DNA of 32,000 nt, taken from positions 30,001 through 62,000 of the forward strand of contig JAPZAR010000031.1 in NCBI GenBank assembly GCA_027460535.1, written 5' to 3'. Below the pieces are notes generated by a model. It was given only the letters and a program-made list of their open reading frames with translations, made no database searches and was not told the origin of the DNA. The DNA is from Candidatus Methanoperedens sp. (GTDB lineage: Archaea; Halobacteriota; Methanosarcinia; Methanosarcinales; Methanoperedenaceae). A program made the position numbers and the translations under genes. Within the stretch, counting starts at the first letter, position 1; each line of letters begins with the position of its first letter. Below are positions 1-23,601 of the stretch, piece by piece.

Positions 1-1005
1 CATTCTCGATCCATATTTATCTGAAAGCACTCCCCCTATTGGGCCTGTTATTGCAAGACCAATTGCAAGAGGTATGGTGAGTATGCTTGCCGTAAGCGGG
101 TCATAGCCCCTCGGTCCCTGGAAGAAGAGGATTAGAAGAATCATTACCGCCCCTCTGGCTATTGAATTTAATAGGGCGCTCAGCTGCCCGTAGGAGAAGA
201 TTCTTATTTTGAACAGGTTCAGGTCCATCAATGGATATATCGCTCGCTTTTCGACGCGCAGGAAGGCGGTAAAACTAACGATAGCGATAACAAGTGACAG
301 AAGCATTGGAGGCGATGTCAAACCAAATATAAACCCTGCCGTGAGATATATCATGGTCGTGATGAAGGCGATCGTGAATAAGACCATTCCAGTGAGGTCG
401 AATTTTTCTCCTTTCGGCAGCTCTGCCACATCTTTCAATTTCAAATGCGCCCAAACCGTAGTTACGATACCAATTGGAACATTAAAAAAGAAAATCAGCC
501 GCCAGTCTATCAATGTAAGGAGCCCTCCCAATATCGGACCCACGACAAATGCTGCGGCCATGATCATGCTAAGGATCCCCATTGCTTTTCCCAGTTCGTT
601 CCGCCTGAAAGCATCGGTGACAATGATGGTGCCGTTGGACACAAGCATCGATCCTCCCACAGCCTGCAATACCCTGAAAGCGATAAGCTGGTTTATGTCA
701 GCTGCAAAACCGCAAAGCAATGAACCAATTGTAAAGACTGCCAATCCATAGACGTAGAGTTTCTTCCGCCCGTAAATATCTGCAAGCCTGCCCCAGGCTG
801 GAGCAAGTATTGTGAGGAGGAGTGAATAACTTATCAGTACCCACATTATCCCGAAGAGGTCTGTCTTCAGTTTCACCATCATAGTGGGAAGAGCGATTAT
901 CAGGGTGCTGGCATTAAGAATCCCGACAAGCATTCCGAGAGAGGTCACCGAAAGGGCGGTCCATTTATAGCTTTCCTGAATGCTGCTATTAAAGTTAGAG
1001 TTCAT
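1..1005 (-). CDS. MFS transporter, DHA2/EmrB-like drug:H+ antiporter family (3' end cut by window edge)
   Basis: My own minus-strand translation from the ATG at complement 1003-1005 gives MNSNFNSSIQESYKWTALSVTSLGMLVGILNASTLIIALPTMM...APAWGRLADIYGRKKLYVYGLAVFTIGSLLCGF...LQAVGGSMLVSNG...VGPILGGLL. It carries the MFS signature G-R-L-A-D-x-Y-G-R-K. The frame stays open to position 1, so it is absent from the ORF track. The + ORFs 209..751 and 445..723 are antisense shadows. Confidence 0.85.
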   Translation of the reverse strand, partial: MNSNFNSSIQESYKWTALSVTSLGMLVGILNASTLIIALPTMMVKLKTDLFGIMWVLISYSLLLTILAPAWGRLADIYGRKKLYVYGLAVFTIGSLLCGFAADINQLIAFRVLQAVGGSMLVSNGTIIVTDAFRRNELGKAMGILSMIMAAAFVVGPILGGLLTLIDWRLIFFFNVPIGIVTTVWAHLKLKDVAELPKGEKFDLTGMVLFTIAFITTMIYLTAGFIFGLTSPPMLLSLVIAIVSFTAFLRVEKRAIYPLMDLNLFKIRIFSYGQLSALLNSIARGAVMILLILFFQGPRGYDPLTASILTIPLAIGLAITGPIGGVLSDKYGSRM

Positions 1006-11273: not shown

Positions 11274-11407
11274 TTCAAACGCCGAGCATCCGCTGGGATG
11301 ATTGTGGGAGTATCAAGGCCATTGCAGCCGTAATTTCATTTTTTTGAAACTGCTTTCAGAGGAATTTCAGGATATTCTTATATGGCCTTTCGTCCATTTG
11401 ACGAACC

Positions 11408-11807: not shown

Positions 11808-12488
11808 ATGATGGAAAATATAATGGAAATGGAAGATGTATGGAAAATTTATCGCATGGGTGAGTTTGATGTACCTGCGCTTGCGGGAATAGACCTGGCC
11901 ATCAAGGCAGGTGAGTTCGTGGCAATAACAGGACCAAGCGGATGCGGTAAGTCAACGATGCTAAATATGGTTGGCTGCATGGACATGCCCACAAAAGGCA
12001 GGGTGCTGCTTCAAGGCAGGGACATATCAGAATTTAACAGCAATGAGCTTGCGCGCACAAGAGGGAAAAAAATCGGATTTGTATTCCAGACGTTCAATCT
12101 GTATCCTACCCTTACAACACTGGAAAACATTCAGCTCCCGATGAGGATCCATGAATTTCCTCAGAGCGATATAGAGGAGACGTCAAGAAAACTGCTAGCT
12201 ACTGTTGGTTTATCTGAACGTGGAGGTCATTTTCCTTCCCAGTTATCAGGCGGACAGCAGCAGAGAGTTGCAGTAGCAAGATCACTCTCCACAGGTCCTT
12301 CCATTCTACTTGCAGACGAGCCTACAGGGAATCTGGATACAAAATCAGGAAGCGAAATAATGGATGTTTTCAAACGCTTGAACAGCGAGGGATTAACTAT
12401 TGTAATGATAACGCACGACATGAGGATTGCAGGATATGCAGGAAGAGTTGTTAAGATGCTTGATGGAAAAATTATAGGTGGAACATGA
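11808..12488 (+). CDS. ABC transporter ATP-binding protein, MacB/LolD-type (cassette 1)
   Basis: Walker A is GPSGCGKST, the Q-loop is FVFQ, the signature is LSGGQQQRVAVARSL, Walker B is ILLADEPTGNLD, and the H-loop is ITHD. Confidence 0.92.
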   Translation: MMENIMEMEDVWKIYRMGEFDVPALAGIDLAIKAGEFVAITGPSGCGKSTMLNMVGCMDMPTKGRVLLQGRDISEFNSNELARTRGKKIGFVFQTFNLYPTLTTLENIQLPMRIHEFPQSDIEETSRKLLATVGLSERGGHFPSQLSGGQQQRVAVARSLSTGPSILLADEPTGNLDTKSGSEIMDVFKRLNSEGLTIVMITHDMRIAGYAGRVVKMLDGKIIGGT

Positions 12489-13681
12489 ATAAATTCAATT
12501 TAATTTTGATAGTCGTTTCAACAGTATTGTTATCAATGGTCGCATCTGCTCAATCAAATTATCTTGTGACTGAAAGCGCACCCGTTTTTCCAGGAGATAC
12601 GACCTATGTCTATGTGCCGATACAGAATATGGGGTTCGGTACGTTCATGGAAGATGTATCGGCCAGACTGGAGCCCAAAGATAATGCTTCAGCCAATTCA
12701 GTAACGATCCTTGATGATGCGTATTCATTGGGAACTATAAACAATTGGGGAGACCAGAGAACTGCAAAATTCAGGATCCACATAAATCCTGATGCCACGG
12801 AAGGAGAGTATTATTTCAATGTTTATATTACCTACAAGGGCCAGCAAATGAATAGCGGTACGCAACAAACTCCGGTAACAACCAAGCTGGAGGACCAGAT
12901 ATTAACTATTAAGGGGAAGCCCTTGATAGTGCTGCTCAATTCAACGCTTGGAACCATAGCACCGATGAGCATTAATAAGGAGACTCTGCAATTCAAAAAT
13001 ACAGGCACAGGCACACTACAGAGCGCCGTGGCTGGAATAGACCTTACAGGAACGAATTCAGCGTTTTCCATTCTTGGCGCAGGGACTCTGTTTTCCCTCG
13101 GCAACCTGAAGGCAGGAGATGAGGCAGATATTACATTTGATCTGGCCGTAGATATTGCGGCCCATCCTGGTGTATATAATCTTCCTATAACAATTACAGG
13201 ACTGAACAATTATTCCTCCGATAATTTTGTTGGACTGGTTGTCGCAGGGACAACTAATTTTGAGATAAGTTACCAGGAAACTCTGGGCTCTTTTTCGCTA
13301 AATGTCGCCAACGTAGGGATAAGTCCTGCCAGTGCAGTGACAGTAACCCTTCCGCGACAAAAGAACTTCTCTTCAACAGGGAGCAGTTCTTCTGTGCTTG
13401 GGAATTTAAATCCGGGTGATTACACATCAGCCATATTCCAGATTGCAAAAATACCGGGTGCTGGCAACGGTCTTGAGGTCTACATACAATATACCGACAC
13501 AAGCGGACAGAGACAATCGATTACAAAGTATCTTCCTGTGGAATTATCCCAGTCTGGCACACAAACCAGGTCAGCAAGCACAAATTATACAACATGGTTA
13601 TTTGCAGCTATTGTTATACTGGCAATATACTGGCAGAGAAGAAAAATAACAACATATTTCCAGAAACAAAAAGGAAGGTGA
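12485..13681 (+). CDS. secreted three-domain Ig-like (CARDB / COG1361 'S-layer-like' type) protein with C-terminal TM anchor (cassette 1)
   Basis: The signal peptide is MNKFNLILIVVSTVLLSMVASAQS. Modules repeat, each ending in G(N/T)L..GD...F.I....A..G.Y (for example GNLKAGDEADITFDLAVDIAAHPGVYNLPITI and GNLNPGDYTSAIFQI). The C-terminal anchor is WLFAAIVILAIYWQRRK. There is an ATGA start/stop overlap with the ATPase gene. Confidence 0.7.
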   Translation: MNKFNLILIVVSTVLLSMVASAQSNYLVTESAPVFPGDTTYVYVPIQNMGFGTFMEDVSARLEPKDNASANSVTILDDAYSLGTINNWGDQRTAKFRIHINPDATEGEYYFNVYITYKGQQMNSGTQQTPVTTKLEDQILTIKGKPLIVLLNSTLGTIAPMSINKETLQFKNTGTGTLQSAVAGIDLTGTNSAFSILGAGTLFSLGNLKAGDEADITFDLAVDIAAHPGVYNLPITITGLNNYSSDNFVGLVVAGTTNFEISYQETLGSFSLNVANVGISPASAVTVTLPRQKNFSSTGSSSSVLGNLNPGDYTSAIFQIAKIPGAGNGLEVYIQYTDTSGQRQSITKYLPVELSQSGTQTRSASTNYTTWLFAAIVILAIYWQRRKITTYFQKQKGR

Positions 13682-13720
13682 GACCCTGTATTTAAACACG
13701 GGGACTGACGAGGACTAAAT

Positions 13721-14971
13721 ATGAAGACTTTTGACATTTTCAAATTATCCCTGAGCCATGTAAAAAAAAGCAAGATGCGAAGCTGGCTCACTATAATAGG
13801 TATTGTAATAGGCGTAGCCGCTGTCGTAGCTATAATTTCCATTGGCCAGGGAATGCAGGAGAGCGTGGCGGCTCGTCTGGGAAGCCTTGGAGCCGATCTG
13901 ATCACGGTCACTCCGGGTTTTTCACGGGCTTCAGGCGGGGGTTTTGAAGGGAGATCGGCTGGTTCCGGAGGTAGCATTAACCTCACTGATAAAGACGTGA
14001 ATGTGATTAAGCAGGTGCCGGGCGTGCTCTATGTAAACGGCATGGTATCTGGCCGGGCGGATATGATATTGGGTACTGAGAAGACCTCCGTATCTATCAG
14101 CGGTATTGATACCGCGGTCTGGCGTTCCATGGTCACCACGCAGCTTGAAGCAGGCAGATATCTTCAGCCGGGCGATTCAAACGCTGTAGTCATTGGCTAC
14201 TCTTTAGCGCACGAAACTTTTTTACAGCCGATCACCCTGAACAGGCCGGTTACAATAGGGGGCAAGACTTTCAAAGTCGTTGGAGTATTCGTACAATCAG
14301 GTGGAGGTTTTGGAGGGGGAAGTGATAATGCAGTATATATGTCGGATGATTTTGCCAGGGATGTGATAACCACGAATGTATCCAGGAATACATTTACGTC
14401 GATTACGGTAAAGGTAACGGACCCCGCGCTGGCGAGTAAAATAGCCGATGATATTGTAGCAAAACTTATGCCGTCGAGGCACGTCAATCCGAGAACCAGA
14501 GATTTTACAGTCACGGCGTTCGCAACAATACAACAACAGATAACCAGTGTCGTCCAGACCATATCGCTGTTCCTTGCTTCGATAGCGGCAGTTTCGCTTC
14601 TGGTAGGAGCTGTGGGTATAGCGAATACCATGTTCATGTCTGTTATGGAACGCACAAGGCAGATAGGACTGCTCAAGGCATTGGGCGCTACGGATAATGA
14701 AGTAATGAAACTTTTCCTTATAGAATCAGGATTATTTGGGTTCGTAGGAGGGGTGCTGGGAATAATTTTTGGCGTACTGATATCCCTCATAATATCCGTA
14801 GTTGGTCTTAGGGCAATAGGACCGGGCGGGACAATGAACGCAGTCGTCTCACCAGAGCTTCTTATTTTTGCACTTGGATTCTCCGTATTCGTAGGCGTGG
14901 TCTCAGGCGTCGTGCCTGCAAGGACAGCCGCAAAGATGAACCCTGTGGATGCCCTGCGTTTTGAGCAATAA
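13721..14971 (+). CDS. ABC transporter permease, MacB/FtsX family (cassette 1)
   Basis: KMRSWLTIIGIVIGVAAVVAIISIGQG is the MacB N-terminal TM. A large extracytoplasmic domain follows. The C-terminal FtsX domain is LLVGAVGIANTMFMSVMERTRQIGLLKALGAT...PARTAAKMNPVDALRFE. Confidence 0.9.
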   Translation: MKTFDIFKLSLSHVKKSKMRSWLTIIGIVIGVAAVVAIISIGQGMQESVAARLGSLGADLITVTPGFSRASGGGFEGRSAGSGGSINLTDKDVNVIKQVPGVLYVNGMVSGRADMILGTEKTSVSISGIDTAVWRSMVTTQLEAGRYLQPGDSNAVVIGYSLAHETFLQPITLNRPVTIGGKTFKVVGVFVQSGGGFGGGSDNAVYMSDDFARDVITTNVSRNTFTSITVKVTDPALASKIADDIVAKLMPSRHVNPRTRDFTVTAFATIQQQITSVVQTISLFLASIAAVSLLVGAVGIANTMFMSVMERTRQIGLLKALGATDNEVMKLFLIESGLFGFVGGVLGIIFGVLISLIISVVGLRAIGPGGTMNAVVSPELLIFALGFSVFVGVVSGVVPARTAAKMNPVDALRFEQ

Positions 14972-15156: not shown

Positions 15157-16065
15157 ATGAAAGTTCGAACAGCCTTGTTCTTGATGATACTGCTGATAAA
15201 TTCCACACATGCACAGGAAATCCCACACGAGGAGCAGGTATTGCTAAATGGTTATGTGGACAATTCCGGGAAAGTTCTCTTGACAGGCTATGCCACACCC
15301 GGATCTCTATCTTATATGCATTTCTTAAACGGGACACAGTATACCTTCGACAACAATACCAGCCAGCTTTATGCCGTAACAGATATGCTGACATCAAAGA
15401 GCGCAGATACATGGTCGCTCAACTTTTCTTCAGAAGGTTATTATTCAGATTATTCTGTAACATTTTATCTTCCGCCTGGTTCTGAGGTCACGAAATTTGA
15501 CATACAGCCGGAACTCAATTATCAATTCCAGGTCAAGGAGGACTCGCTTACCTTATCCATACAGGGATACAGGGTGGTGTCTCCCTGGATCAAAGTGGAT
15601 TACAAAGTACCGGCCGAAGTACAGGGTCAATCAAGTGGTCTGGTTACTTCCGTGCTTCCTGTATCACTAATTATTGTGTTGATTGCTGGAGCTACTTTCC
15701 TGATCTATAGACGCAGAATGCAGAAAAAAACAGCCATTCCTGAGAAAAAAGAATCACAGGATCAAGAGAAAAAAGTTATCCCTGAAACAAAACCTGAAAC
15801 GAAAGAAATCCATGCCACGGGCGAGATGCAAAAGGTCATAGATACTCTTTCCGATAAGGAGAAGGCAATAATAGGCTTATTGTTAAAAAACGGAGGTTCT
15901 GCAACGCAGGCTGATATTCGATATGAGATCATGATTCCAAAATCTTCGCTTACAGGCATATTAAACGCTTTAAAGAGGAGAAACATAATAAAAAAGCATG
16001 AATATGGAAGAACGAATGTTATAGAACTTTCAGAATGGTTTTTGTCAGAAAAAGAATTCAAATAG
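15157..16065 (+). CDS. membrane-tethered MarR/TrmB-like winged-helix regulator with extracytoplasmic N-terminal domain
   Basis: The signal peptide is MKVRTALFLMILLINSTHAQ. An extracellular domain of about 170 aa rich in N-x-S/T follows, then the TM VLPVSLIIVLIAGATFLIY and RRR. A K/E-rich linker leads to the wHTH LSDKEKAIIGLLLKNGGSATQADIRYEIMIPKSSLTGILNALKRRNIIKKHEYGRTNVIEL. The ATG at 15157 is preferred over 15124. Confidence 0.7.
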   Translation: MKVRTALFLMILLINSTHAQEIPHEEQVLLNGYVDNSGKVLLTGYATPGSLSYMHFLNGTQYTFDNNTSQLYAVTDMLTSKSADTWSLNFSSEGYYSDYSVTFYLPPGSEVTKFDIQPELNYQFQVKEDSLTLSIQGYRVVSPWIKVDYKVPAEVQGQSSGLVTSVLPVSLIIVLIAGATFLIYRRRMQKKTAIPEKKESQDQEKKVIPETKPETKEIHATGEMQKVIDTLSDKEKAIIGLLLKNGGSATQADIRYEIMIPKSSLTGILNALKRRNIIKKHEYGRTNVIELSEWFLSEKEFK

Positions 16066-16080
16066 GAAACAGTCTGGTTT

Positions 16081-16575
16081 ATGGATGATTTGGATTATTT
16101 CAAGGAGTTGGCAGCCGATATACAGCACTCTGAAATTAATATACCCATAATGGATATCGAATTGACCCTCAGTGTGAAATATTTTTTGAATGACTCCGGA
16201 GTAGGCTACTGCAGCTTATTAATTAATAAAATTCATGCTAGCGGTTTGAAAGGAAATATAGAAGCTGCAGCAGCAGAGGCTTATGTGGGAAGGTCAATCT
16301 TCATTTTTTTATCTGAATTGGATGATGGGCTGAAACTAATCACAGTACCTGCTTTATTTGAAAAGCAATCATGCCTTGATGAAAAAATATATTTGGCTAA
16401 TTTTATTGTAAATGCATATTATCCTGCGGATTTCAAGAAAACAGCTCACGAGGTCTATGAAGAGCATATGAACGCCTTGATCGGAAAAAAGATACGCAAA
16501 GATGTAGCCTATCTCTCGCGCAGCATTCTTAATCTTCCAACAATAGCCCTTGAAATATTGAGATGTTATAGATAA
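16081..16575 (+). CDS. hypothetical cytoplasmic protein
   Basis: A 164-aa ORF on the same strand, 15 nt after the regulator gene. I recognised no motif. Confidence 0.45.
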   Translation: MDDLDYFKELAADIQHSEINIPIMDIELTLSVKYFLNDSGVGYCSLLINKIHASGLKGNIEAAAAEAYVGRSIFIFLSELDDGLKLITVPALFEKQSCLDEKIYLANFIVNAYYPADFKKTAHEVYEEHMNALIGKKIRKDVAYLSRSILNLPTIALEILRCYR

Positions 16576-16765
16576 TAGTTCTTTTTGGGTTTTCTCCAAA
16601 TTCAATTCCTAATTCAAATAAAACCCTTTAAATGATGATTAATATCTCAATTCCCTATTATGAGCCGCTTCTCCTCCGCTATACGATCAAGTTCAGGACT
16701 CAGCTGGGATGGATATATTGCGAAATTTCGGAATTCGACAGGAATGAGGAATAATTCAATGATGA

Positions 16766-16846
16766 TTCGATGCAGGAATCTGGATGGCCTCATGTCGCCA
16801 TTTTGAACTTTCAGATGGTTTTTTATCAAAAAATGAACCAAAATAA
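16766..16846 (+). pseudogene. 3'-terminal remnant (copy A) of a paralog of the wHTH regulator gene
   Basis: The frame reads ...FELSDGFLSKNEPK*, which aligns with the intact regulator C-terminus VIELSEWFLSEKEFK*. An in-frame stop lies at 16763-16765, so no gene body remains. Confidence 0.55.
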
Positions 16847-16863
16847 AGCATTTTTATTATAAC

Positions 16864-16895
16864 GTTCTGCATCGCATTTATGTATCGTTCGATCC
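16864..16895 (+). promoter_or_regulatory. conserved 32-nt promoter/operator element, copy A
   Basis: The sequence is GTTCTGCATCGCATTTATGTATCGTTCGATCC. It has a TATA-like core (TTTATGTAT) flanked by GTTC-containing arms. GGTGA and an ATG follow 24 nt downstream. It matches copy B at 27 of 32 positions. Confidence 0.6.
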
Positions 16896-16919
16896 AACCC
16901 GACATCTTAGGTGAAGAAA

Positions 16920-16973
16920 ATGAGAATGACCATGAAACTACCATTGCAGGATAGCCGTCAAGCCCCGGAGTGA
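16920..16973 (+). pseudogene. 5' remnant of an HGFALN-family gene (17 codons then stop)
   Basis: ATGAGAATGACCATGAAACTACC aligns with the start of the 18235 gene, ATGAAAATAACGAAGAAAACAGC. It sits at the same spacing from the 32-nt element. It translates as MRMTMKLPLQDSRQAPE*. Confidence 0.5.
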
Positions 16974-16997
16974 AGGCTTTACTGAAAGGAGATTGAT

Positions 16998-17885
16998 ATG
17001 AGACAAAAATTATTCTATGCAATTATTCCACTGATATTCCTTGGTCTTCTGGCACAGACAAATCCTGGGCAGAAAATTACAGCGGAACGAGCAATCGATC
17101 CAAGTCTTAATGTCGGCAGAGGACTGAATTTCTCCAATAACTGGGCCGGGTATGTCGCTACAGGGGGTACTTTTACTTCGGTAAGCGGATCATGGAGCGT
17201 CCCGCAGGTAAGCGCAACAGGAACTTCAGCCGACGCAACCTGGGTGGGCATTGGAGGTACAGCCGGTAATCATTTAATTCAGACGGGAACGCAGGCTTTA
17301 GCCAATAACAATGGCAAGGTTAGTTACCAGGCCTGGTATGAGATGTTGCCGGCGAACTCCCAGGAAATTCCGCTCACGATCAACTCCGGTGATTCCATTA
17401 CCGCTTCTATTGTCCAGCAATCAGCGAACCACTGGACGATCTCTTTGAGTGATGATACCACAGGCCAGAATTACCAGACAACAGTTACCTACGCCGCATC
17501 CTTATCCTCAGCAGAATGGATCCAGGAAATGCCGGTTCGCGGCAGATCTTTCATTCCGCTCGATAATTTCGGCTCCGTACAATTCAGCGCTTTATCGGCT
17601 GTTAAAGACGGCACTGCACTGACCCCTGCCCAGGCTAACGCGCACTCTATAGTCATGGCTAATAATCTCCGTCAGGTCCTGGCTCACCCTTCAGCCCTGG
17701 GAAGCGATGGAGCCAGTTTCACCGTAGCCCGCACCTCTTCAACATCGACGCAGATCGTTTCTCCCTCAGGAAGGACCGGCTGGCGCAGAGTTGTGACAGA
17801 CGTCCATGGTATCCAGCCATTGAACGGGCAAAGCCACAGTAGAGGAAGATTCAAAGGTGGATTCGGCCAGAGATTTGAACACTAG
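16998..17885 (+). CDS. peptidase family G1 (eqolisin / scytalidoglutamic-peptidase-like glutamic peptidase), secreted
   Basis: The signal/anchor is MRQKLFYAIIPLIFLGLLAQT. The motifs SNNWAGY, TWVGIGG, LIQTG (catalytic Gln position), YQAWYEMLP, SAEWIQE (catalytic Glu position) and DNFGSVQF parallel SNWAGA, AWVGIDG, LQTG, AWYEWYP, AEWIVE and DFGSVTF of scytalidoglutamic peptidase as I recall it. AGGAG lies upstream of the ATG. Confidence 0.8.
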   Translation: MRQKLFYAIIPLIFLGLLAQTNPGQKITAERAIDPSLNVGRGLNFSNNWAGYVATGGTFTSVSGSWSVPQVSATGTSADATWVGIGGTAGNHLIQTGTQALANNNGKVSYQAWYEMLPANSQEIPLTINSGDSITASIVQQSANHWTISLSDDTTGQNYQTTVTYAASLSSAEWIQEMPVRGRSFIPLDNFGSVQFSALSAVKDGTALTPAQANAHSIVMANNLRQVLAHPSALGSDGASFTVARTSSTSTQIVSPSGRTGWRRVVTDVHGIQPLNGQSHSRGRFKGGFGQRFEH

Positions 17886-17950
17886 TTACCACCTCAACGA
17901 TCGTTCAAATACAGAAGAACTTAGTGAATTGTAGCTCTGCACTCCTCCTA

Positions 17951-17980
17951 TTTTTCTCCAGTTTTCAGTTCCTTTTTTTT
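17951..17980 (+). terminator. oligo-T tracts downstream of the G1 peptidase gene
   Basis: A T5 run at 17951-17955 and a T8 run at 17973-17980 lie within 100 nt of the stop. Confidence 0.35.
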
Positions 17981-18100
17981 ATTCGTTCATTTTCCCCAAG
18001 CAAGCTTATTGCTAATATTCGTGCAATACACGTAGAAAAATCTTAACTTACGGGTAATAGTGCTCCAAAGATGATATATATGGTAAAAAAGGATAATAGT

Positions 18101-18160
18101 GAACTTATGAACGTTATAGAACCATTAGAATGGTTTTTATCCAAAAAAGAACTCAAATAA
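18101..18160 (+). pseudogene. 3'-terminal remnant (copy B) of a paralog of the wHTH regulator gene
   Basis: It translates as ELMNVIEPLEWFLSKKELK*, against the intact GRTNVIELSEWFLSEKEFK*. DNA similarity to 16006-16065 is obvious (aaYgttatagaac...agaatggttttt...aaaagaaYtcaaata). Stops TAA TAG TGA lie immediately upstream. Confidence 0.65.
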
Positions 18161-18178
18161 GGCTCATTTCATGTCAAA

Positions 18179-18210
18179 GTTCTGCATCGAAATTAAGTAT
18201 CGTTCAATCA
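18179..18210 (+). promoter_or_regulatory. conserved 32-nt promoter/operator element, copy B
   Basis: The sequence is GTTCTGCATCGAAATTAAGTATCGTTCAATCA. GAGGT and the ATG at 18235 follow 24 nt downstream. Confidence 0.65.
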
Positions 18211-18234
18211 AAGTAGGCATTCGAGGTAAATCAA

Positions 18235-18834
18235 ATGAAAATAACGAAGAAAACAGCAATATTGACATTGTTTACTGCGGTTTTGTTGGTTTCTGCACCA
18301 TTGGCAGTAACTGTATTTGCCCAGCCTTCGGGTCCGGGTATGGGAAGAGGATACGGGGCATCGCATAACGCTATGGGAACGTTCAGACAGAATATTGTAC
18401 CTATAGTCATGGGGCACGGGTTTGCTTTGAATCCATCAGATACAACCCAATATCACGTTCTGGATGTGACGGCTATGAAGATCAGTAATGCAACGCAAAG
18501 TCGAACCAGAGCTAATCTCAGATTCGCAGGTCAGCCGTATAGTCTCACCATAACAGGCTATACCAACACATCACTAGTTGGAACCATATATACGGTGCCT
18601 CCGCGGGGGACGAACCATGCGGGTTTCACCCCAAGTGAAGCAGGTAGCATCTCGCTTTCAATGTCTAAATATGAAGGGGTAATGCTCTCAAATGGAACTC
18701 TAACAATGACCTCCGGTACGAATTACACTGGAACTTACAATGTACTACTGACATCCCCTGATATAGCATCCGGTGGCGGAATGCACAATGCCAATGGAAT
18801 GTTCGGAGCGCGTAAGTTCGGATCGGGCAATTAG
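18235..18834 (+). CDS. secreted HGFALN-family protein (paralog of 23047..23601) with Met/Gly/His/Asn-rich termini
   Basis: The signal is MKITKKTAILTLFTAVLLVSAPLAVTVFAQP. It shares blocks with the 23047 protein: GHGFALN, YH(V/I)LDV, LRFAG..Y.L.ITGY.N.SL.G, GTN..(G/S)FTP, G.ISLS..KYEG..L..GTLTM. Its tails are GPGMGRGYGASHNAMGTF and GGGMHNANGMFGARKFGSGN. Confidence 0.7.
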   Translation: MKITKKTAILTLFTAVLLVSAPLAVTVFAQPSGPGMGRGYGASHNAMGTFRQNIVPIVMGHGFALNPSDTTQYHVLDVTAMKISNATQSRTRANLRFAGQPYSLTITGYTNTSLVGTIYTVPPRGTNHAGFTPSEAGSISLSMSKYEGVMLSNGTLTMTSGTNYTGTYNVLLTSPDIASGGGMHNANGMFGARKFGSGN

Positions 18835-18933
18835 AAATAGAAAAAGGATAGTAATGGGAATCCCCCAAGCGGGGATTCCTTTAATATCCCTCAATATAAA
18901 TATATTAACAAAAAAGAGACAAGAAGGAGATGT

Positions 18934-19446
18934 ATGAATAGGAAAGGCGTAGTAGTGTTACTTTTGTTAACATTAGCAATTCTTTCAGGAGCACCGGAGT
19001 CTTTCGCACGGCTCCAGTATCTTACAAATCTCACCGCAGTGTATAGCGCTGGTTCATGCGGCACCTGCCATGTAATAGCTTCAGGCAGTGGAATGCGCAA
19101 CTCCAGCGGGATGTTCGGACAGAACAATTCTAACGGAACTTATGTTCCACGCAACACCAGCAGAACACCGGGGATGCGCCGCTCTAACGGAACGTTTGGA
19201 ATGCGTTCCTCAAACAGAACGTTGCCGCTTAACTCGTACGGAACGTTATTTGCTAACCAGCCTGACCACGCTACCGATCCCAGTGCAGCCCTGATGGCTA
19301 TAGGGCAGCCACCTGCAGCAAACCCACAAGATAGCCCCGCAGATACAGCCGTGACAGGGACTAAAGCGGCTCCAGGGTTCGGAATTGTGTTATCCCTGGT
19401 CGGATTATTTGCATTGGCTCTTCTGGCAAGGCGGAAAAATAAATGA
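18934..19446 (+). CDS. secreted monoheme (single CxxCH) protein with Asn/Gly/Met/Arg repeats and a canonical PGF-CTERM archaeosortase signal
   Basis: The signal is MNRKGVVVLLLLTLAILSGAPESFA, with one CGTCH motif. Repeats are SGMRNSSGMFGQNNSNGT and PGMRRSNGTFGMRSSNRT, with many N-x-S/T sequons. The C-terminus is APGFGIVLSLVGLFALALLARRKNK, that is PGF plus a TM plus a basic tail. AGGAG lies upstream of the ATG. Confidence 0.8.
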   Translation: MNRKGVVVLLLLTLAILSGAPESFARLQYLTNLTAVYSAGSCGTCHVIASGSGMRNSSGMFGQNNSNGTYVPRNTSRTPGMRRSNGTFGMRSSNRTLPLNSYGTLFANQPDHATDPSAALMAIGQPPAANPQDSPADTAVTGTKAAPGFGIVLSLVGLFALALLARRKNK

Positions 19447-19506
19447 TTATGACTGGTCTTAATTTCAGTCGCACTTTTTACGTTCAATTCTTATTCAACA
19501 GGTAAT

Positions 19507-20214
19507 ATGATGGAAAATATAATGGAACTGAAGGACGTCTGGAAAATCTACAAGATGGGCGAAGTGGAAGTGCCGGCTCTGAAAGGAATAAGCGTTGAAA
19601 TAAAGAAGGGAGACTTTGTGGCTATTATAGGTGCCTCGGGAAGCGGCAAATCTACAATGATGAACCTGATAGGCTGCCTGGATATTCCTTCCAGAGGAAG
19701 CTTATATCTCCGATCGCAGGACATCAGCACATTAAGCGAATCAGACCTTGCCTCATTCAGGGGTAAGACTATCGGTTTTATTTTCCAGCAATACAACCTG
19801 ATCCAGTCGATGTCTGCTTTTGAGAACGTGATGCTTCCACTGGAATTCTTAGAATATGATGACCAAAAAGCAGCAAACAGGGCAAGAGAAATACTGACAC
19901 TGGTGGGGTTGAGTGATAAGATGCATCATCGTCCGACACAGCTTTCAGGTGGTCAGCAGCAGAGAGTGTCCATAGCAAGATGCCTTGCTGGCGACCCTGA
20001 GATAATCCTTGCGGATGAACCGACCGGAGCACTCGACAGTGTTACAGGCAGAGAAGTCCTGGATATGCTTCACAGATTGTGGGAAGAGCATGGAAAAACG
20101 ATCATAATGGTCACTCACGACCTTAATCTGGCTAAATATGCTCACACAACAATTGAACTGAAAGACGGAGAGATTTTGAAAATATCTGAAAATAACGAGG
20201 TAAATAAAAAATGA
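19507..20214 (+). CDS. ABC transporter ATP-binding protein, MacB/LolD-type (cassette 2)
   Basis: Walker A is GASGSGKST, the signature is LSGGQQQRVSIARCL, Walker B is IILADEPTGALD, and the H-loop is VTHD. The first 21 nt (ATGATGGAAAATATAATGGAA) are identical to the cassette 1 ATPase gene. Confidence 0.92.
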   Translation: MMENIMELKDVWKIYKMGEVEVPALKGISVEIKKGDFVAIIGASGSGKSTMMNLIGCLDIPSRGSLYLRSQDISTLSESDLASFRGKTIGFIFQQYNLIQSMSAFENVMLPLEFLEYDDQKAANRAREILTLVGLSDKMHHRPTQLSGGQQQRVSIARCLAGDPEIILADEPTGALDSVTGREVLDMLHRLWEEHGKTIIMVTHDLNLAKYAHTTIELKDGEILKISENNEVNKK

Positions 20215-21572
20215 AAAAAATAATGTTTCCGGTTTTGATAATACTGGTATTGACAGCTTACACACCTGCAGTTTATGCAGATTTAGCAGATCTAGCAGGC
20301 TCATCAGTACTATCAGTAAGCCTTGCAAACTCTGACCCTAATCCTGCTATTGCAGGAAATACCGTGGATGTTCGTATAGGTATCCAGAATATCGGGGGTA
20401 CGACTACTAGCGATCTTATGATGGAAGTTATACCACAGTATCCTTTTGAGCTTGTACCAGGTGAAAACGCAGTTCAGGATGTAGGAATAGTTCAACCCTA
20501 TCAGAAGAGTGATCCTACTGTAAATATAAAAGTCATACTGTACCATATGCAGATAAACAGGAATGCTCCGGCAGGTAGTTACCAATTCAAAGTTAAGTAT
20601 TATGAGGCGGGTTCAACCGATGTGACCCAGCAAAGCCTGTCCATTGATGTGAAGAGCAAAGAAAACGCTGAAGTGATCCACATTGGCCAGACGATGCTCG
20701 TTCCGGGAAGGCAAAGCAGCTTAATATTCACGATCAATAATGTCGGGAATGCACCCCTCCGGGATCTGACTTTCAGCTGGGCGAATGATGAAAAGATAGT
20801 TCTCCCAGTCGGGAGTGACAATACCAAATATATCAGGTACATCGATATTGGCAATGGCACTGACCTGGAATACCAGGTGATGGCAGATACTAATGCAGTG
20901 CCGGGATTATACAAACTGAACTTATACCTGACTTATGAAGATTCAATGACAAACCAAACCAAAACAATAAGCACATTTGCCGGGGTGTATGTTGGCGGAG
21001 GAACGGATTTCGATGTGGCATACTCAGATAATGCGAACAGCCAGATGTCTTTCAGCGTTGCCAATATAGGAAGCAACCCAGCAAACTCGGTATCTGTGGT
21101 TATTCCCGATCAGCCGGTCTGGAGTGTAAGCGGCCCAAATTCAGTCATCATAGGTAATCTGAACAAAGGAGACTATACGGTTGCAAGCTTCAAATTGCAA
21201 TCCTCAATGAGTAATATGACTTCCCAGAATAGAGCCTCCAGAAACAATACCAATTTCCAGGGAAGGCAAAGTCCAACAAATATCTCATCCGATACAGTGC
21301 TCATACAAATAGCCTATACCGATACCATGGGAGTAAGAAATGTCGTTGAAAAACAGGTCAAAATCGGATTTCAAAATATGGCATCTCCAAGCGCTATGCA
21401 GGGACGAAGAGGAGCCACACAACCAACAAGTGTACTCTCTAATAACATGCTGTATTTCTTCGGCATAATAGTGCTCGTTGGCGCAGTTGTAGTCCACAGG
21501 AAATACAAGAGCCGCAAACTGCTTGATCCTGGTTTCAAAATGAAGGATTTATTCAAACGCGAGAAGAAATGA
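20211..21572 (+). CDS. secreted three-domain Ig-like (CARDB / COG1361-type) protein with C-terminal TM anchor (cassette 2)
   Basis: The signal is MKKIMFPVLIILVLTAYTPAVYA. Its modules repeat: NPAIAGNTVDVRIGIQNIGG...APAGSYQFKVKY; SSLIFTINNVGNAPL...VPGLYKLNLYLTY; FSVANIGSNPANSVSVVIP...GNLNKGDYTVASFKL. The C-terminal TM is MLYFFGIIVLVGAVVVHRKYK. It has the same ATGA overlap with the ATPase gene as in cassette 1. Confidence 0.7.
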   Translation: MKKIMFPVLIILVLTAYTPAVYADLADLAGSSVLSVSLANSDPNPAIAGNTVDVRIGIQNIGGTTTSDLMMEVIPQYPFELVPGENAVQDVGIVQPYQKSDPTVNIKVILYHMQINRNAPAGSYQFKVKYYEAGSTDVTQQSLSIDVKSKENAEVIHIGQTMLVPGRQSSLIFTINNVGNAPLRDLTFSWANDEKIVLPVGSDNTKYIRYIDIGNGTDLEYQVMADTNAVPGLYKLNLYLTYEDSMTNQTKTISTFAGVYVGGGTDFDVAYSDNANSQMSFSVANIGSNPANSVSVVIPDQPVWSVSGPNSVIIGNLNKGDYTVASFKLQSSMSNMTSQNRASRNNTNFQGRQSPTNISSDTVLIQIAYTDTMGVRNVVEKQVKIGFQNMASPSAMQGRRGATQPTSVLSNNMLYFFGIIVLVGAVVVHRKYKSRKLLDPGFKMKDLFKREKK

Positions 21573-21591
21573 TAATTTCCTGCGGGTCAAA

Positions 21592-22824
21592 ATGAAACTA
21601 AATAAATGTTTCAAACATGCGTTTAACATGGTACTTCACAGCAAGCTGCGAAGCTGGCTGACTATAACGGGCATAGTCATAGGTGTTGCTGCGGTTATTG
21701 CGATTGTTTCGATAGGAGACGGGATGCAGCAAACGCTGAATGCACAATTGAACGCTCTTGGCGGAGACATCGTTACAATCACAGCCGGCGCTGAACGGGG
21801 TGGCGGCATGTATGGTATGAGAGGCGGCGGGGGAGGAGGAGGCCAGGCAACGACCAAAGAAATAGTACTGGGCAGAAGTGACCTCCAGGCATTGAAGGGT
21901 ATACCTGATATTGCTCTGATCGACACAAATATCAGAGAGAGTGTGAATATATCCTATCTTGGCAAAACAGGGAAAGTATCTGTAACAGGCGTTGACCAGA
22001 AAGTATGGTCTCAAATTACTACTACTACTATACAAACTGGCAGGATGCTTGATTCTGCTGACCAGAACGTCATAGTTATCGGGGGAAATCTCGCATCCTC
22101 TTATTTTTCCCAGCCTGTCGGGATTAATAAGATGGTAACGATAAACGCCGCTGCTTTCAGGGTTGTGGGAATTCTTAATGACCAGACCACCAGCGTTTAC
22201 ATGCCGATCCAGATGGCATACCAGGTGATGCCAGACAAGACGAATGATATCTACGACACACTTGTTGTTAAGATCAGGAATCAGGACCAGTTAGATTTTG
22301 TAATCACGGAAATCCAGAATAAACTTATGATTTCAAGACATGTCACTCAAAATACAATGGATTTTTCAGTCACTTCAAGGAAGGAAATGCAGCAGGCCAG
22401 AGCGGCTACGATGAGTTCAATGAGCACATTTCTGCTTGCAATTGCAGCGGTTTCATTGATTGTGGGTTCCATCGGTATTGCAAATACCATGTTCACTTCC
22501 GTCCTTGAAAAGACTAAGGAAATCGGGATAATGAAAGCTATCGGCGCGCGCAATCCCGACATTTTGCTCATATTCCTGTTCAATGCAGGATTTATCGGAC
22601 TCGTTGGTGGAATAATTGGCGTAATCCTCGGAACAATGCTTTCTGGCTTCATGCCTGCGCTTATGGGGGGAGGTCTTCCCATGGCAAGAGGGGGCACAAT
22701 AGTGACATTGAACTCAATAATGATGGCATTATCAGTATCGGTCATAGTAGGAATTCTTGCAGGAATAATACCTGCGTACCAGGCATCGAAATTGAGGCCT
22801 GTTGATGCTCTGAGATACGAATAA
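21592..22824 (+). CDS. ABC transporter permease, MacB/FtsX family (cassette 2)
   Basis: KLRSWLTITGIVIGVAAVIAIVSIGDG is followed by an extracytoplasmic domain. The FtsX domain is LIVGSIGIANTMFTSVLEKTKEIGIMKAIGAR...PAYQASKLRPVDALRYE. Confidence 0.9.
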   Translation: MKLNKCFKHAFNMVLHSKLRSWLTITGIVIGVAAVIAIVSIGDGMQQTLNAQLNALGGDIVTITAGAERGGGMYGMRGGGGGGGQATTKEIVLGRSDLQALKGIPDIALIDTNIRESVNISYLGKTGKVSVTGVDQKVWSQITTTTIQTGRMLDSADQNVIVIGGNLASSYFSQPVGINKMVTINAAAFRVVGILNDQTTSVYMPIQMAYQVMPDKTNDIYDTLVVKIRNQDQLDFVITEIQNKLMISRHVTQNTMDFSVTSRKEMQQARAATMSSMSTFLLAIAAVSLIVGSIGIANTMFTSVLEKTKEIGIMKAIGARNPDILLIFLFNAGFIGLVGGIIGVILGTMLSGFMPALMGGGLPMARGGTIVTLNSIMMALSVSVIVGILAGIIPAYQASKLRPVDALRYE

Positions 22825-22845
22825 AGGTGGATTCAAATATCGTTC

Positions 22846-22974
22846 ATGAGTGTGCTCACTCACAGGTATAATAAATGCTCAAAATCGGCAGACAAAATAA
22901 AAAAGCGCAAGCATGGATGGACGAACCTAATCGAACCTTTGGAATGGTGCATATTAGAAAAAAGACTCAAATAG
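22846..22974 (+). pseudogene. 3'-terminal remnant (copy C) of a paralog of the wHTH regulator gene
   Basis: The 42-codon frame is MSVLTHRYNKCSKSADKIKKRKHGWTNLIEPLEWCILEKRLK*. It aligns with the intact regulator's SSLTGILNALKRRNIIKKHEYGRTNVIELSEWFLSEKEFK*. It lies where cassette 1 has the full-length regulator, directly after the permease. Confidence 0.6.
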
Positions 22975-22992
22975 AGCTTATTTCATATCACT

Positions 22993-23024
22993 GTTCAGCA
23001 TCAATATTAAATATCGTTCAGTCC
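22993..23024 (+). promoter_or_regulatory. conserved 32-nt promoter/operator element, copy C
   Basis: The sequence is GTTCAGCATCAATATTAAATATCGTTCAGTCC. AGGAG and the ATG at 23047 follow 22 nt downstream. Confidence 0.65.
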
Positions 23025-23046
23025 AAGTTGAATCAAGGAGAATAAA

Positions 23047-23601
23047 ATGAAACTGACTAAAAAAACAGCAATATTCTTTACAGCTGTAATTCTGGTTTCA
23101 GTGATAATTGCATTGGCAGTGTTTGCCCGGCCCATGGGTAAGGAAAAGGGGCATGTAAGACCATTCATTGAGCCCATACTCATTGGGCACGGATTTGCGC
23201 TGAACGGAAACGACTATCACATTTTGGATGTGAATGCTATAAAAACGATTAACGTATCCCATGGTTTTATCCATTCCCTGCTTTCGAATAAAAAAAGCCC
23301 GGGAGAGATCGAAAAAGAAATAAACGATGCGAAAATAGCGACCATGACCAGGGCGCATCTCAGATTTGCAGGTAAGGTATATGCTCTCAACATAACAGGT
23401 TATGATAACCAGTCTCTTACGGGAGATGTGTTGACACTGCTCACGCATGGTACCAACCAGACAAGCTTCACTCCGACTTCAGTAGGAAACATCTCGCTGT
23501 CAACGTTAAAATACGAAGGTGAATCGCTCATAACGGGTACTCTGACCATGAACGGCACAGATTACAGGGTGTTTATGACTTCGCCAATGGCACTTAGATA
23601 A
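23047..23601 (+). CDS. secreted HGFALN-family protein (paralog of 18235..18834)
   Basis: The signal is MKLTKKTAIFFTAVILVSVIIALAVFARP. It contains GHGFALN, YHILDVNAIK, AHLRFAGKVYALNITGYDNQSLTG, GTNQTSFTPTSVGNISLSTLKYEGESLITGTLTMNG. Confidence 0.7.
   Translation: MKLTKKTAIFFTAVILVSVIIALAVFARPMGKEKGHVRPFIEPILIGHGFALNGNDYHILDVNAIKTINVSHGFIHSLLSNKKSPGEIEKEINDAKIATMTRAHLRFAGKVYALNITGYDNQSLTGDVLTLLTHGTNQTSFTPTSVGNISLSTLKYEGESLITGTLTMNGTDYRVFMTSPMALR

Follow-up and report, generated by a model that had tools for sequence, protein, structure and literature searches.

The window analysed here, a 32,000-nt stretch of Candidatus Methanoperedens sp. DNA (contig JAPZAR010000031.1, positions 30,001 to 62,000, forward strand), contains three copies of a conserved 32-nt non-coding element. 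As judged from sequence and predicted structure, this element is probably a regulated core promoter, the two arms of which would be read by a membrane-tethered transcription regulator with a DUF7343 domain, encoded beside it in most related loci; we hold this overall picture with moderate confidence. The window has a G+C content of 43.5%, and Pfam annotation identifies FrhB, a multihaem cytochrome, PGF-CTERM proteins and two MacB/FtsX-type ATP-binding cassette (ABC) transporter operons.

The three copies, termed A, B and C, are all on the + strand and align without gaps, as claimed in an earlier note on this DNA and confirmed here by a pattern scan, a position weight matrix (PWM) and shuffled controls.

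Element copy A, 16864..16895, + strand: GTTCTGCATCGCATTTATGTATCGTTCGATCC; PWM score 43.4 bits; the most diverged of the three, with a 102-nt leader to the Peptidase_A4 gene.
Element copy B, 18179..18210, + strand: GTTCTGCATCGAAATTAAGTATCGTTCAATCA; PWM score 53.6 bits; close to the family consensus.
Element copy C, 22993..23024, + strand: GTTCAGCATCAATATTAAATATCGTTCAGTCC; PWM score 42.5 bits; precedes the p184 gene.

A degenerate pattern allowing up to three mismatches matched only A, B and C in the window, where no match was expected by chance, and found nothing in 100 dinucleotide-preserving shuffles. The PWM, built from 39 family members, scored the three copies at 42–54 bits, with no other window site reaching 8 bits and no match in 20 mononucleotide shuffles of the window. 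Pairwise identity between the copies is 76–84% within the element and 45–72% in every flank, the baseline being an average of 48% between unrelated 80-mers of the window. The Shine-Dalgarno (SD)-like sequences GGTGA, GAGGT and AGGAG reported before the downstream ATGs are present. The distance from the element to the ATG, given previously as 22–24 nt, is 24 nt for B and 22 nt for C but 25 nt for A; similarly, B and C do lie upstream of genes, but the ATG behind A (16921) opens only a 17-codon relic, the next real gene being at 16998–17885.

The repeat unit is longer than 32 nt, since a remnant of the 3' end of a winged helix-turn-helix (wHTH) gene precedes each copy. This remnant, the broken last 40–100 nt of a DUF7343 gene, ends approximately 18 nt upstream of the element. 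The intact gene, and the relics as defined by repeat search and, for those of the wHTH gene, translation, are as follows.

Intact gene for a membrane-tethered wHTH protein (DUF7343), 15157..16065, + strand: Pfam DUF7343, E=2.3e-14.
wHTH-gene relic before copy A, 16805..16847, + strand: frameshifted last ~41 nt and stop codon; 78% identical to 16024–16064.
Pseudogenised wHTH 3' end before copy B, 18047..18160, + strand: ends in NVIEPLEWFLSKKELK and a stop codon; 73% identity over 98 nt.
Pseudogenised, frameshifted wHTH 3' end before copy C, 22876..22975, + strand: 66% identity over 98 nt.
Relic of 17 codons behind copy A, 16921..16974, + strand: a p184/p199-type gene start; 72% identical to the start of the p199 gene.

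The best explanation is that A, B and C are segmental duplicates of a junction formed by a wHTH 3' end and a promoter, in which the wHTH ends have decayed and the promoter has been kept.

The element is conserved across the genus. The strict pattern GTTCNGCATCNNNNTTANNTATCGTTC, with 20 specified bases, for which we estimate about one chance match in 596 Gb, was scanned against one genome per species for 185,579 species. It revealed 18 further copies in 16 related loci (labelled L001 and so on below). The motif is thus not confined to the three duplicated junctions of the window; such confinement, together with a lack of protein binding, would have weakened the proposal according to the earlier note. 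Contigs of Candidatus Methanoperedens or of an 'uncultured archaeon' carry 17 of the 18 copies, and 15 of the 16 loci are so titled. The remaining locus (L016, JACUUX010000096.1) is a 5.4-kb contig of a 'Nitrospirae bacterium' metagenome-assembled genome, with a complete set of wHTH gene, element, p184 gene and ABC2 operon, and its proteins are 65–86% identical to their window counterparts. The contig carries such Methanoperedens-type genes and has most likely been misbinned.

As the strict pattern itself forces some positions to match, protein-anchored samples were added. There are 473 relatives of the wHTH protein; the best 120 of these are all at least 54% identical to it, and every source among the 120 that names an organism is Methanoperedens or an 'uncultured archaeon'. 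The genomic context was collected for four divergent relatives (55–61% identity, in unrelated neighbourhoods) and for 20 metagenome loci obtained with a protein profile. Over all loci then collected, including those from the pattern scan, the element stands 17–33 nt past the stop codon in 28 of 29 intact wHTH genes, so GTTC and ATCGTTC, although required by the search pattern, are also found in this position. The orthologs with only 55–61% protein identity retain GTTC...ATCG...TTAAG.ATCGTTCA. Among p184-family genes picked by protein search, the element is upstream in all four, three of them behind a decayed wHTH relic and with unrelated neighbours. These four loci came later, and are additional to the 40 distinct modules defined from the first 43 loci, of which 24 are behind an intact wHTH gene, 13 behind relics and three at locus edges.

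The 40 modules are all built alike. A DUF7343 gene end (3'), intact or pseudogenised, is followed by a spacer of about 18 nt, the element, 22–25 nt containing an SD sequence, and the ATG that starts a secreted-protein gene. This ATG is 22–25 nt past the element in 31 of 38 modules. In every strict match the wHTH gene ends in GRTNVIELSEWFLSEKELK and a stop codon, followed by AGCTTATTTCATATCAAT, the element, AAGTGGGCATTTGAGGTGAATAAA and an ATG that opens a signal peptide (MKITKKTAILF...). The canonical locus consists of p132, the ABC1 operon and the wHTH gene, then the element, then p184/p199, a PGF-CTERM gene and the ABC2 operon, then a wHTH relic, a further element and a p184 paralog. In variants, a Peptidase_A4 gene is directly behind the element, and the genes found in this position are unrelated to one another, comprising p184/p199, Peptidase_A4, a PGF-like gene and other open reading frames (ORFs).

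Could this conservation reflect duplication ancestry alone, as the earlier note had allowed? A wHTH 3' end or relic is upstream of every copy found, all copies descend from one junction, and B and C share a paralogous downstream gene, as would be expected if the element had no function of its own. The 13 relic-type copies have lost the upstream coding constraint, and their co-duplicated flanks therefore provide a neutral reference from within the data. These copies and those behind intact genes were compared, zone by zone, for their identity to the family consensus.

Distal relic zone (-175..-90): relic-type 0.49, intact 0.87.
Proximal relic zone (-89..-19): relic-type 0.73, intact 0.88.
Spacer (-18..-1): relic-type 0.73, intact 0.79.
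Element (1..32): relic-type 0.89, intact 0.88.
Downstream (33..56): relic-type 0.72, intact 0.74.

The element remains at 0.89 while the flanks drop to 0.49–0.73, which favours selection over duplication ancestry alone. Copies A, B and C show the same contrast between element and flanks; of the 32 element positions, 15 are invariant across wHTH orthologs that are only 55–61% identical in protein, and heavily decayed relics (L045, L047) are followed by an intact element. The element thus outlasts its co-duplicated flanks, even though all copies derive from a single junction, and it is unlikely to be a pure relic; an element owing its conservation to ancestry alone is a strongly disfavoured explanation. 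Conservation is beyond both neutral expectation and the needs of a core promoter, as is characteristic of a transcription-factor operator.

Within the relics, the blocks GAACnTTATCGAAC, GGTTTTTATC (a run of five Ts) and AAATAAAGCTTATTT are 80–90% conserved, and sequence further upstream decays (-88 to -19, e.g. 18091–18160). In intact wHTH genes, synonymous sites in the last 19 codons are slightly less variable than those in the preceding 47-codon stretch (normalised synonymous entropy 0.37 versus 0.53, with 16 and 36 codons scored; one-sided p = 0.053). In the protein-sampled relics L045 and L047, all three blocks are eroding. They may perhaps be upstream regulatory or terminator/insulator DNA, or may just decay more slowly.

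The element has the anatomy of an archaeal promoter. Its consensus is a(C/T)GTTCnGCATCGAAATTAArTATCGTTCArTCC. Across 39 distinct sequences, G1, T2, T3, C4, A8, A17 and A21–C27 (ATCGTTC) are invariant, and T9, G11, T16, T20 and A28 are nearly so. Positions 10–14 (CGAAA) resemble a transcription factor B recognition element (BRE), and positions 15–22 resemble a TATA box (TTAAGTAT, TTATATAT or TTAAATAT). At core positions 15, 16 and 18, nearly every change exchanges A and T, which is the pattern that a site for the TATA-binding protein (TBP) should show. An A/T-rich box of about 8 bp, with a BRE directly upstream and on the strand of the downstream gene, is thus present; in copy B, the BRE-like CGAAA is at 18188–18192 and the TATA-like TTAAGTAT at 18193–18200.

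In Methanolobus psychrophilus, another member of the Methanosarcinales, differential RNA sequencing placed BRE/TATA sequences about 19–22 nt from the transcription start site (TSS), for 82% of primary transcripts (PMC5378194). If this spacing is applied, the TSS is predicted at approximately element positions 42–46, 10–15 nt before the ATG. For copy B this would be at about 18220–18224, and the predicted leader would begin at or just before the conserved SD sequence GAGGTGA. For the M. nitroreducens ortholog, public assembled contigs end at scattered points within the wHTH gene and gave no TSS signal. Relative to the predicted TSS, the left invariant block would adjoin the BRE on its upstream side, at about -46 to -37, and the right block would fall between the TATA box and the TSS, at about -24 to -16. 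Activator sites of characterised archaeal promoters are found upstream of the BRE, and repressor sites between the TATA box and the TSS.

The candidate regulator is the product of the intact gene at 15157–16065, which had been described as a membrane-tethered wHTH protein. Pfam, an AlphaFold2 model and Foldseek all bear this out. The DUF7343 match scores 53.4 bits against a cut-off of 27.6, and the predicted layout comprises an N-terminal signal helix, a beta-sandwich (27–150), a transmembrane helix (167–189), RRRMQKK, a disordered linker and a wHTH domain (222–296), modelled as helix-helix-strand-helix-helix-wing. The model was built from 12 family members; the mean predicted local distance difference test score (pLDDT) is 72, with 81–92 in the wHTH domain. 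Most of the best Foldseek matches are wHTH cores of the MarR family (PcaV, HpaR, MexR, MepR and ZitR), and some are ArsR-type or other winged-helix proteins; the structural alignment to MarR types is restricted to a wHTH core of approximately 75 residues, with a TM-score to the target of 0.4–0.46. The MarR_2 profile scores 20.3 bits, below its cut-off of 27, which places the protein outside the MarR family as so defined. Three weak whole-chain matches with low TM-scores are to oligosaccharyltransferase subunits, and there is no sequence relative in the PDB.

On the evidence of Pfam and the model, a DNA-binding domain and at least one transmembrane segment are combined in one polypeptide, the architecture of a transmembrane transcription regulator. 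The wHTH domain is predicted to be cytoplasmic because of the positive-inside rule. It is almost invariant across the family, as are the element arms, and co-variation between recognition helix and arms is uninformative for this reason. Transmembrane transcription regulators are a recognised class, with an average of about four per archaeal genome (PMC10269533). A comparison of the sensor domain with the neighbouring multihaem cytochrome, with which there is a 26-nt repeat, gave only a weak, transmembrane-proximal match (E = 0.005, from a single comparison). A second small membrane-anchored wHTH protein of 175 aa, HTH-2 (L004:3187–3714), is encoded in the same loci in other genomes; tblastn found no HTH-2 in the window.

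Taken together, these features suggest a mechanism in which CGAAA-TTAAGTAT (positions 10–22) would act as BRE and TATA box, recruiting transcription factor B (TFB) and TBP. Transcription would start about 20 nt past the TATA box and 10–15 nt before the ATG, on a short leader carrying the SD sequence GAGGTGA. The invariant flanks would be the contacts of a sequence-specific regulator that gates TBP/TFB binding or the recruitment of RNA polymerase, the left contact, next to the BRE on its upstream side, being (C/T)GTTCnGCAT (about -46 to -37), and the right contact, past the TATA box but before the start site, being TATCGTTCA (about -24 to -16). The DUF7343 protein is the most likely candidate for this regulator, since in nearly all genomes only 18 nt separate the end of its gene from the element; its extracellular beta-sandwich may detect a cue from the envelope or from outside the cell, and its cytoplasmic winged helix may act on the promoter beside its own gene. 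The output of the promoter would comprise the p184/p199 family, Peptidase_A4, the PGF-CTERM protein and a MacB-type ABC transporter. The regulator could be an activator or a repressor.

Several observations weigh against a promoter controlled by the DUF7343 protein. The earlier proposal of a promoter with its TATA box inside a factor site holds as regards a conserved non-coding element of fixed geometry, with a BRE/TATA centre and invariant arms. The element contains no inverted repeat of at least 4 nt, and the dyad symmetry suited to a dimeric wHTH protein is absent; MarR-like wHTH dimers normally bind palindromes or pseudopalindromes. The sole internal symmetry is a 5-nt direct repeat, CGTTC, with the two units 23 bp apart, and a direct repeat of this length occurs in 20% of shuffles, so the element has neither the dyad nor the significant direct repeat that would match an oligomeric binder. 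The TATA-like core of the most divergent orthologs is a weak one (TTAAGCAT). Of the 29 intact wHTH genes, the window's own is the one exception, with about 740 nt between it and copy A. Similarity within a genome could be inflated by gene conversion between paralogs. The 40 modules are not independent observations, as they go back to one ancestral junction; none of them has the element in promoters that are not duplicates of one another, and there are no weaker sites in the window to point to a regulon beyond the duplicated junctions. The 'regulon' of the earlier note therefore consists only of descendants of one ancestral gene junction. The adjacency of the DUF7343 gene is circumstantial as evidence for the binder, HTH-2 being encoded in the same loci elsewhere.

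The last point raises the possibility that the promoter is as described but that its arms are bound by another regulator, HTH-2 or a cytoplasmic factor, the DUF7343 protein being a mere neighbour or acting elsewhere. This would suit the lack of the dyad expected for a MarR-like dimer and the window's intact DUF7343 gene, which adjoins no copy; HTH-2, where present, is itself followed by a second promoter-like module, P1 (see below). HTH-2 is missing from the window, however, where three copies of the element have been kept, and the 28 of 29 adjacencies of the DUF7343 gene include divergent orthologs in unrelated neighbourhoods with no HTH-2 among the called genes, so that we consider control by another factor rather unlikely. 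A strong core promoter without any regulator is a slightly less likely explanation again. Here the flanks would be basal features (contacts of TFB, TFE or RNA polymerase, or the initially melted region) or features of the leader, and the BRE/TATA geometry, the absence of dyad symmetry and the absence of further window sites that would define a factor-specific motif would all be accounted for. The invariant 4-nt and 7-nt blocks at about -46 and -24 to -18 contain G and C, however, and are foreign to the generic Methanosarcinales promoter consensus, which to our knowledge includes no such blocks. The Methanolobus promoter study reports BRE and TATA only (PMC5378194). In addition, P1, although also a conserved promoter-like module of the window, has quite different flanks.

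An element acting at the RNA level in a wHTH–p184 co-transcript, whether as a small RNA, a site of processing or a structure that controls translation, is very improbable. The position between two genes on the same strand and near an SD sequence would suit such a role, and the lack of overlap with Rfam leaves room for a novel RNA (there are no gathering-level matches, and an E-value scan of 15900–23200, a range that includes all three copies, gave two matches, both outside the copies). RNAalifold, however, predicted no pairs and no covariation in 34 copies (-60 to +62); shuffled sequences fold at least as well as the + strand of the window copies (z = 0.36 to 1.37), and for the antisense strand z is only -1.7. 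These results led us to reject an RNA structure or riboswitch. Relic-type copies also follow unrelated genes, so there is no fixed co-transcript context. Least probable of all, to the point of being nearly negligible, is a site of site-specific recombination, or a cassette junction, by which the downstream genes would be mobilised; the differing genes behind the element and the reported copies of ATCGTTCA after two stop codons might be cited in its favour. These partial right-arm copies, at 17900 and 22839, are at chance level: outside the element ATCGTTCA occurs 10 times versus about 10 expected from base composition (280 kb of the window and related loci, or 560 kb on both strands), it is unconserved at orthologous positions, and none of its occurrences in the other loci comes after the stop codon of an FtsX or Peptidase_A4 gene. 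Flanking inverted repeats are absent, and among the called genes of L017–L023 and L044–L056 there is no integrase and one transposase (L018), a count that is subject to the pattern- and protein-scan loci having been compared only with window proteins. No matches to the element were found on viral contigs. Of the other candidates, a small ORF through the element was rejected, as the ORF at 18171–18368 in copy B has no equivalent in the many copies that lack an in-frame ATG; the variable positions show no 3-nt periodicity. A scan for bacterial sigma-70 promoters and terminators gave chance-level results, irrelevant to an archaeon.

A more elaborate version of the DUF7343-controlled promoter can be envisaged, which we regard as speculative and, taken jointly, improbable. 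The last 60–90 nt of the wHTH gene and the element would together form a portable cassette of about 125 nt, a regulator tail plus promoter, which builds a small regulon by promoter duplication and has been set repeatedly before different secreted-protein genes. Recognition would be non-palindromic: two (C)GTTC contacts in the same orientation, 23 bp apart, might bracket the BRE/TATA region bound by TBP and TFB, and the membrane regulator might clamp or release the pre-initiation complex without a classical dyad operator. The relic blocks GAACnTTATCGAAC and GGTTTTTATC might then serve as upstream activating or insulating/terminator sequences.

Characterised archaeal examples of membrane-bound regulators are ArnR and ArnR1 of Sulfolobus acidocaldarius, and paired inverted-repeat boxes upstream of the flaB BRE are bound (PMC6396743). 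This one-component archaeal system is similar in its membrane-anchored HTH protein, BRE/TATA promoter and short conserved boxes. ArnR, however, has an N-terminal HTH domain and two C-terminal transmembrane helices, whereas the DUF7343 protein has a cleavable-type signal peptide, a beta-sandwich, one transmembrane helix and a C-terminal wHTH domain; the topology is opposite and there is no sequence relationship. The ArnR boxes, located at -43 to -84, are a pair of inverted repeats (TCGAC-N5-GTCGA), whereas the blocks of the element bracket the TATA box and lack a dyad.

In bacteria, ToxR/TcpP, CadC and BcrR (which controls the bcrABD ABC transporter of Enterococcus faecalis) are likewise single-protein, membrane-tethered sensor-regulators, and they control envelope or export genes that lie next to them. 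The sites of ToxR and CadC are direct repeats and not palindromes. These proteins differ from the DUF7343 protein in working with the sigma-70 machinery, in their N-terminal OmpR-type or XRE-type domain and in lacking DUF7343 homology; the class has been reviewed (PMC10269533).

A site beside or downstream of the TATA box is shared with the archaeal regulators NrpR (GGAA-N6-TTCC), MDR1, Phr, TrmB/TrmBL1 (Thermococcales glycolytic motif, TGM), SurR (GTTn3AAC) and MsvR. Such factors compete with TBP/TFB or block the recruitment of RNA polymerase, and a site just upstream of the BRE can activate. These proteins are soluble and have palindromic or semi-palindromic sites, unlike the present case, and the element matches none of their motifs. 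Bce-type peptide-sensing modules also couple a signal-transduction gene to an operon for a MacB/FtsX-type ABC transporter, but these are bacterial and use a two-component kinase and response regulator; here the regulator is a one-component wHTH protein, and the first gene encodes an orphan secreted protein.

The genes behind the three copies in the window are as follows.

Secreted Peptidase_A4, 16998..17885, + strand: Pfam E=2.9e-40; the first real gene behind copy A.
p199, orphan secreted protein, 18235..18834, + strand: directly behind copy B.
PGF-CTERM protein with CxxCH, 18934–19446, + strand: probable copy-B operon.
ABC ATPase, 19507–20214, + strand: Pfam; probable copy-B operon.
CARDB-domain protein, 20211–21572, + strand: Pfam; probable copy-B operon.
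MacB/FtsX permease, 21592–22824, + strand: Pfam; probable copy-B operon.
p184, paralog of p199, 23047..23601, + strand: directly behind copy C.

The Peptidase_A4 ATG is 22–24 nt past the element in L009, L015 and L026. The p184/p199 family, which follows the element in 29 of the 40 modules, has 133 members and no Pfam match, and all sources that name an organism are Methanoperedens or 'uncultured archaeon'. Modelling predicts an eight-strand antiparallel beta structure, with a pLDDT of about 90 over residues 53–176; its likeness to lipocalin-, nitrophorin- and nitrobindin-type barrels is insignificant (best E = 0.028), and there is no significant PDB match. The genes from 18934 to 22824 probably form the rest of the copy-B operon, and their order is kept in L001, L003, L004, L005, L011, L012 and L016. 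The products encoded downstream of the element are all envelope or extracellular proteins, which fits control by an outward-facing sensor.

The PGF-CTERM protein contains one CxxCH (SCGTCH) and three Met/Asn/Gly-rich repeats, GM(R/H)N..G(M/T)FG, and could be a haem- or metal-related surface protein; repeat search showed the same repeat motif at the C-terminus of p199 (18777–18830). At 18857–18887, 23 nt past the p199 stop codon, a perfect 9-bp G+C-rich hairpin, GGAATCCCC-CAAGC-GGGGATTCC, is followed by TTTAATAT. It may be a partial terminator or stabiliser that parts an abundant first gene from the ABC genes; a simple terminator scan did not list it. The two ABC operons, each encoding an ATPase, a CARDB-domain protein and a MacB/FtsX permease, are paralogous and are situated on either side of the regulator gene (11808–14971 and 19507–22824), with nucleotide similarity of up to 74% over 90 nt by repeat search. 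Immediately downstream of the regulator gene, the stretch of about 740 nt at 16066–16804 contains the ORF p164 (16081–16575), which has no Pfam or NCBIfam match, and has no counterpart in 46 related loci. It represents an insertion or rearrangement specific to this lineage, by which the regulator gene has been separated from the promoter that normally follows it.

The second conserved intergenic module, P1, is at 11330–11405 (+ strand) in the window (ATTTCATTTTTTTGAAACTGCTTTCAGAGGAATTTCAGGATATTCTTATATGGCCTTTCGTCC) and also at L004:3745, L006:2280(-), L009:4139, L011:3701, L014:4716(-), L025:992, L026:2305, L038:556 and L041:1674. It precedes either p132/ABC1 or, directly, the DUF7343 gene, and in other genomes lies just past the HTH-2 gene. 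Its features are a palindrome, GAAACTGCTTTC, arms that form an inverted repeat, GAAT/ATTC (GAATTTCAGGATATTC), and TTATAT, a TATA-like sequence located about 24 nt before the p132 ATG; this spacing suggests that the p132 transcript may be leaderless.

An archaeal promoter with flanking factor sites and a transmembrane one-component regulator are both of known kinds; the present motif, the protein family and their pairing are undescribed in the literature searched, which included no report joining Methanoperedens with TSS and promoter mapping and none naming DUF7343. The element is thus of an ordinary, unsurprising kind, and is a clean candidate for membrane-tethered gene control in archaea. Methanoperedens (anaerobic methanotrophic archaea, ANME-2d), an ecologically important genus, is not available in pure culture, and we found almost no published work on its transcriptional control. 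The locus offers a compact conserved cis element, a candidate trans factor of a little-studied class and a defined output, and a first binding test needs just a 32-bp probe and a soluble domain of about 85 residues. If such binding proves true, the promoter and regulator pair could be used, in metatranscriptomes of methane-oxidising consortia, as a marker for sensing of the envelope or the extracellular environment.

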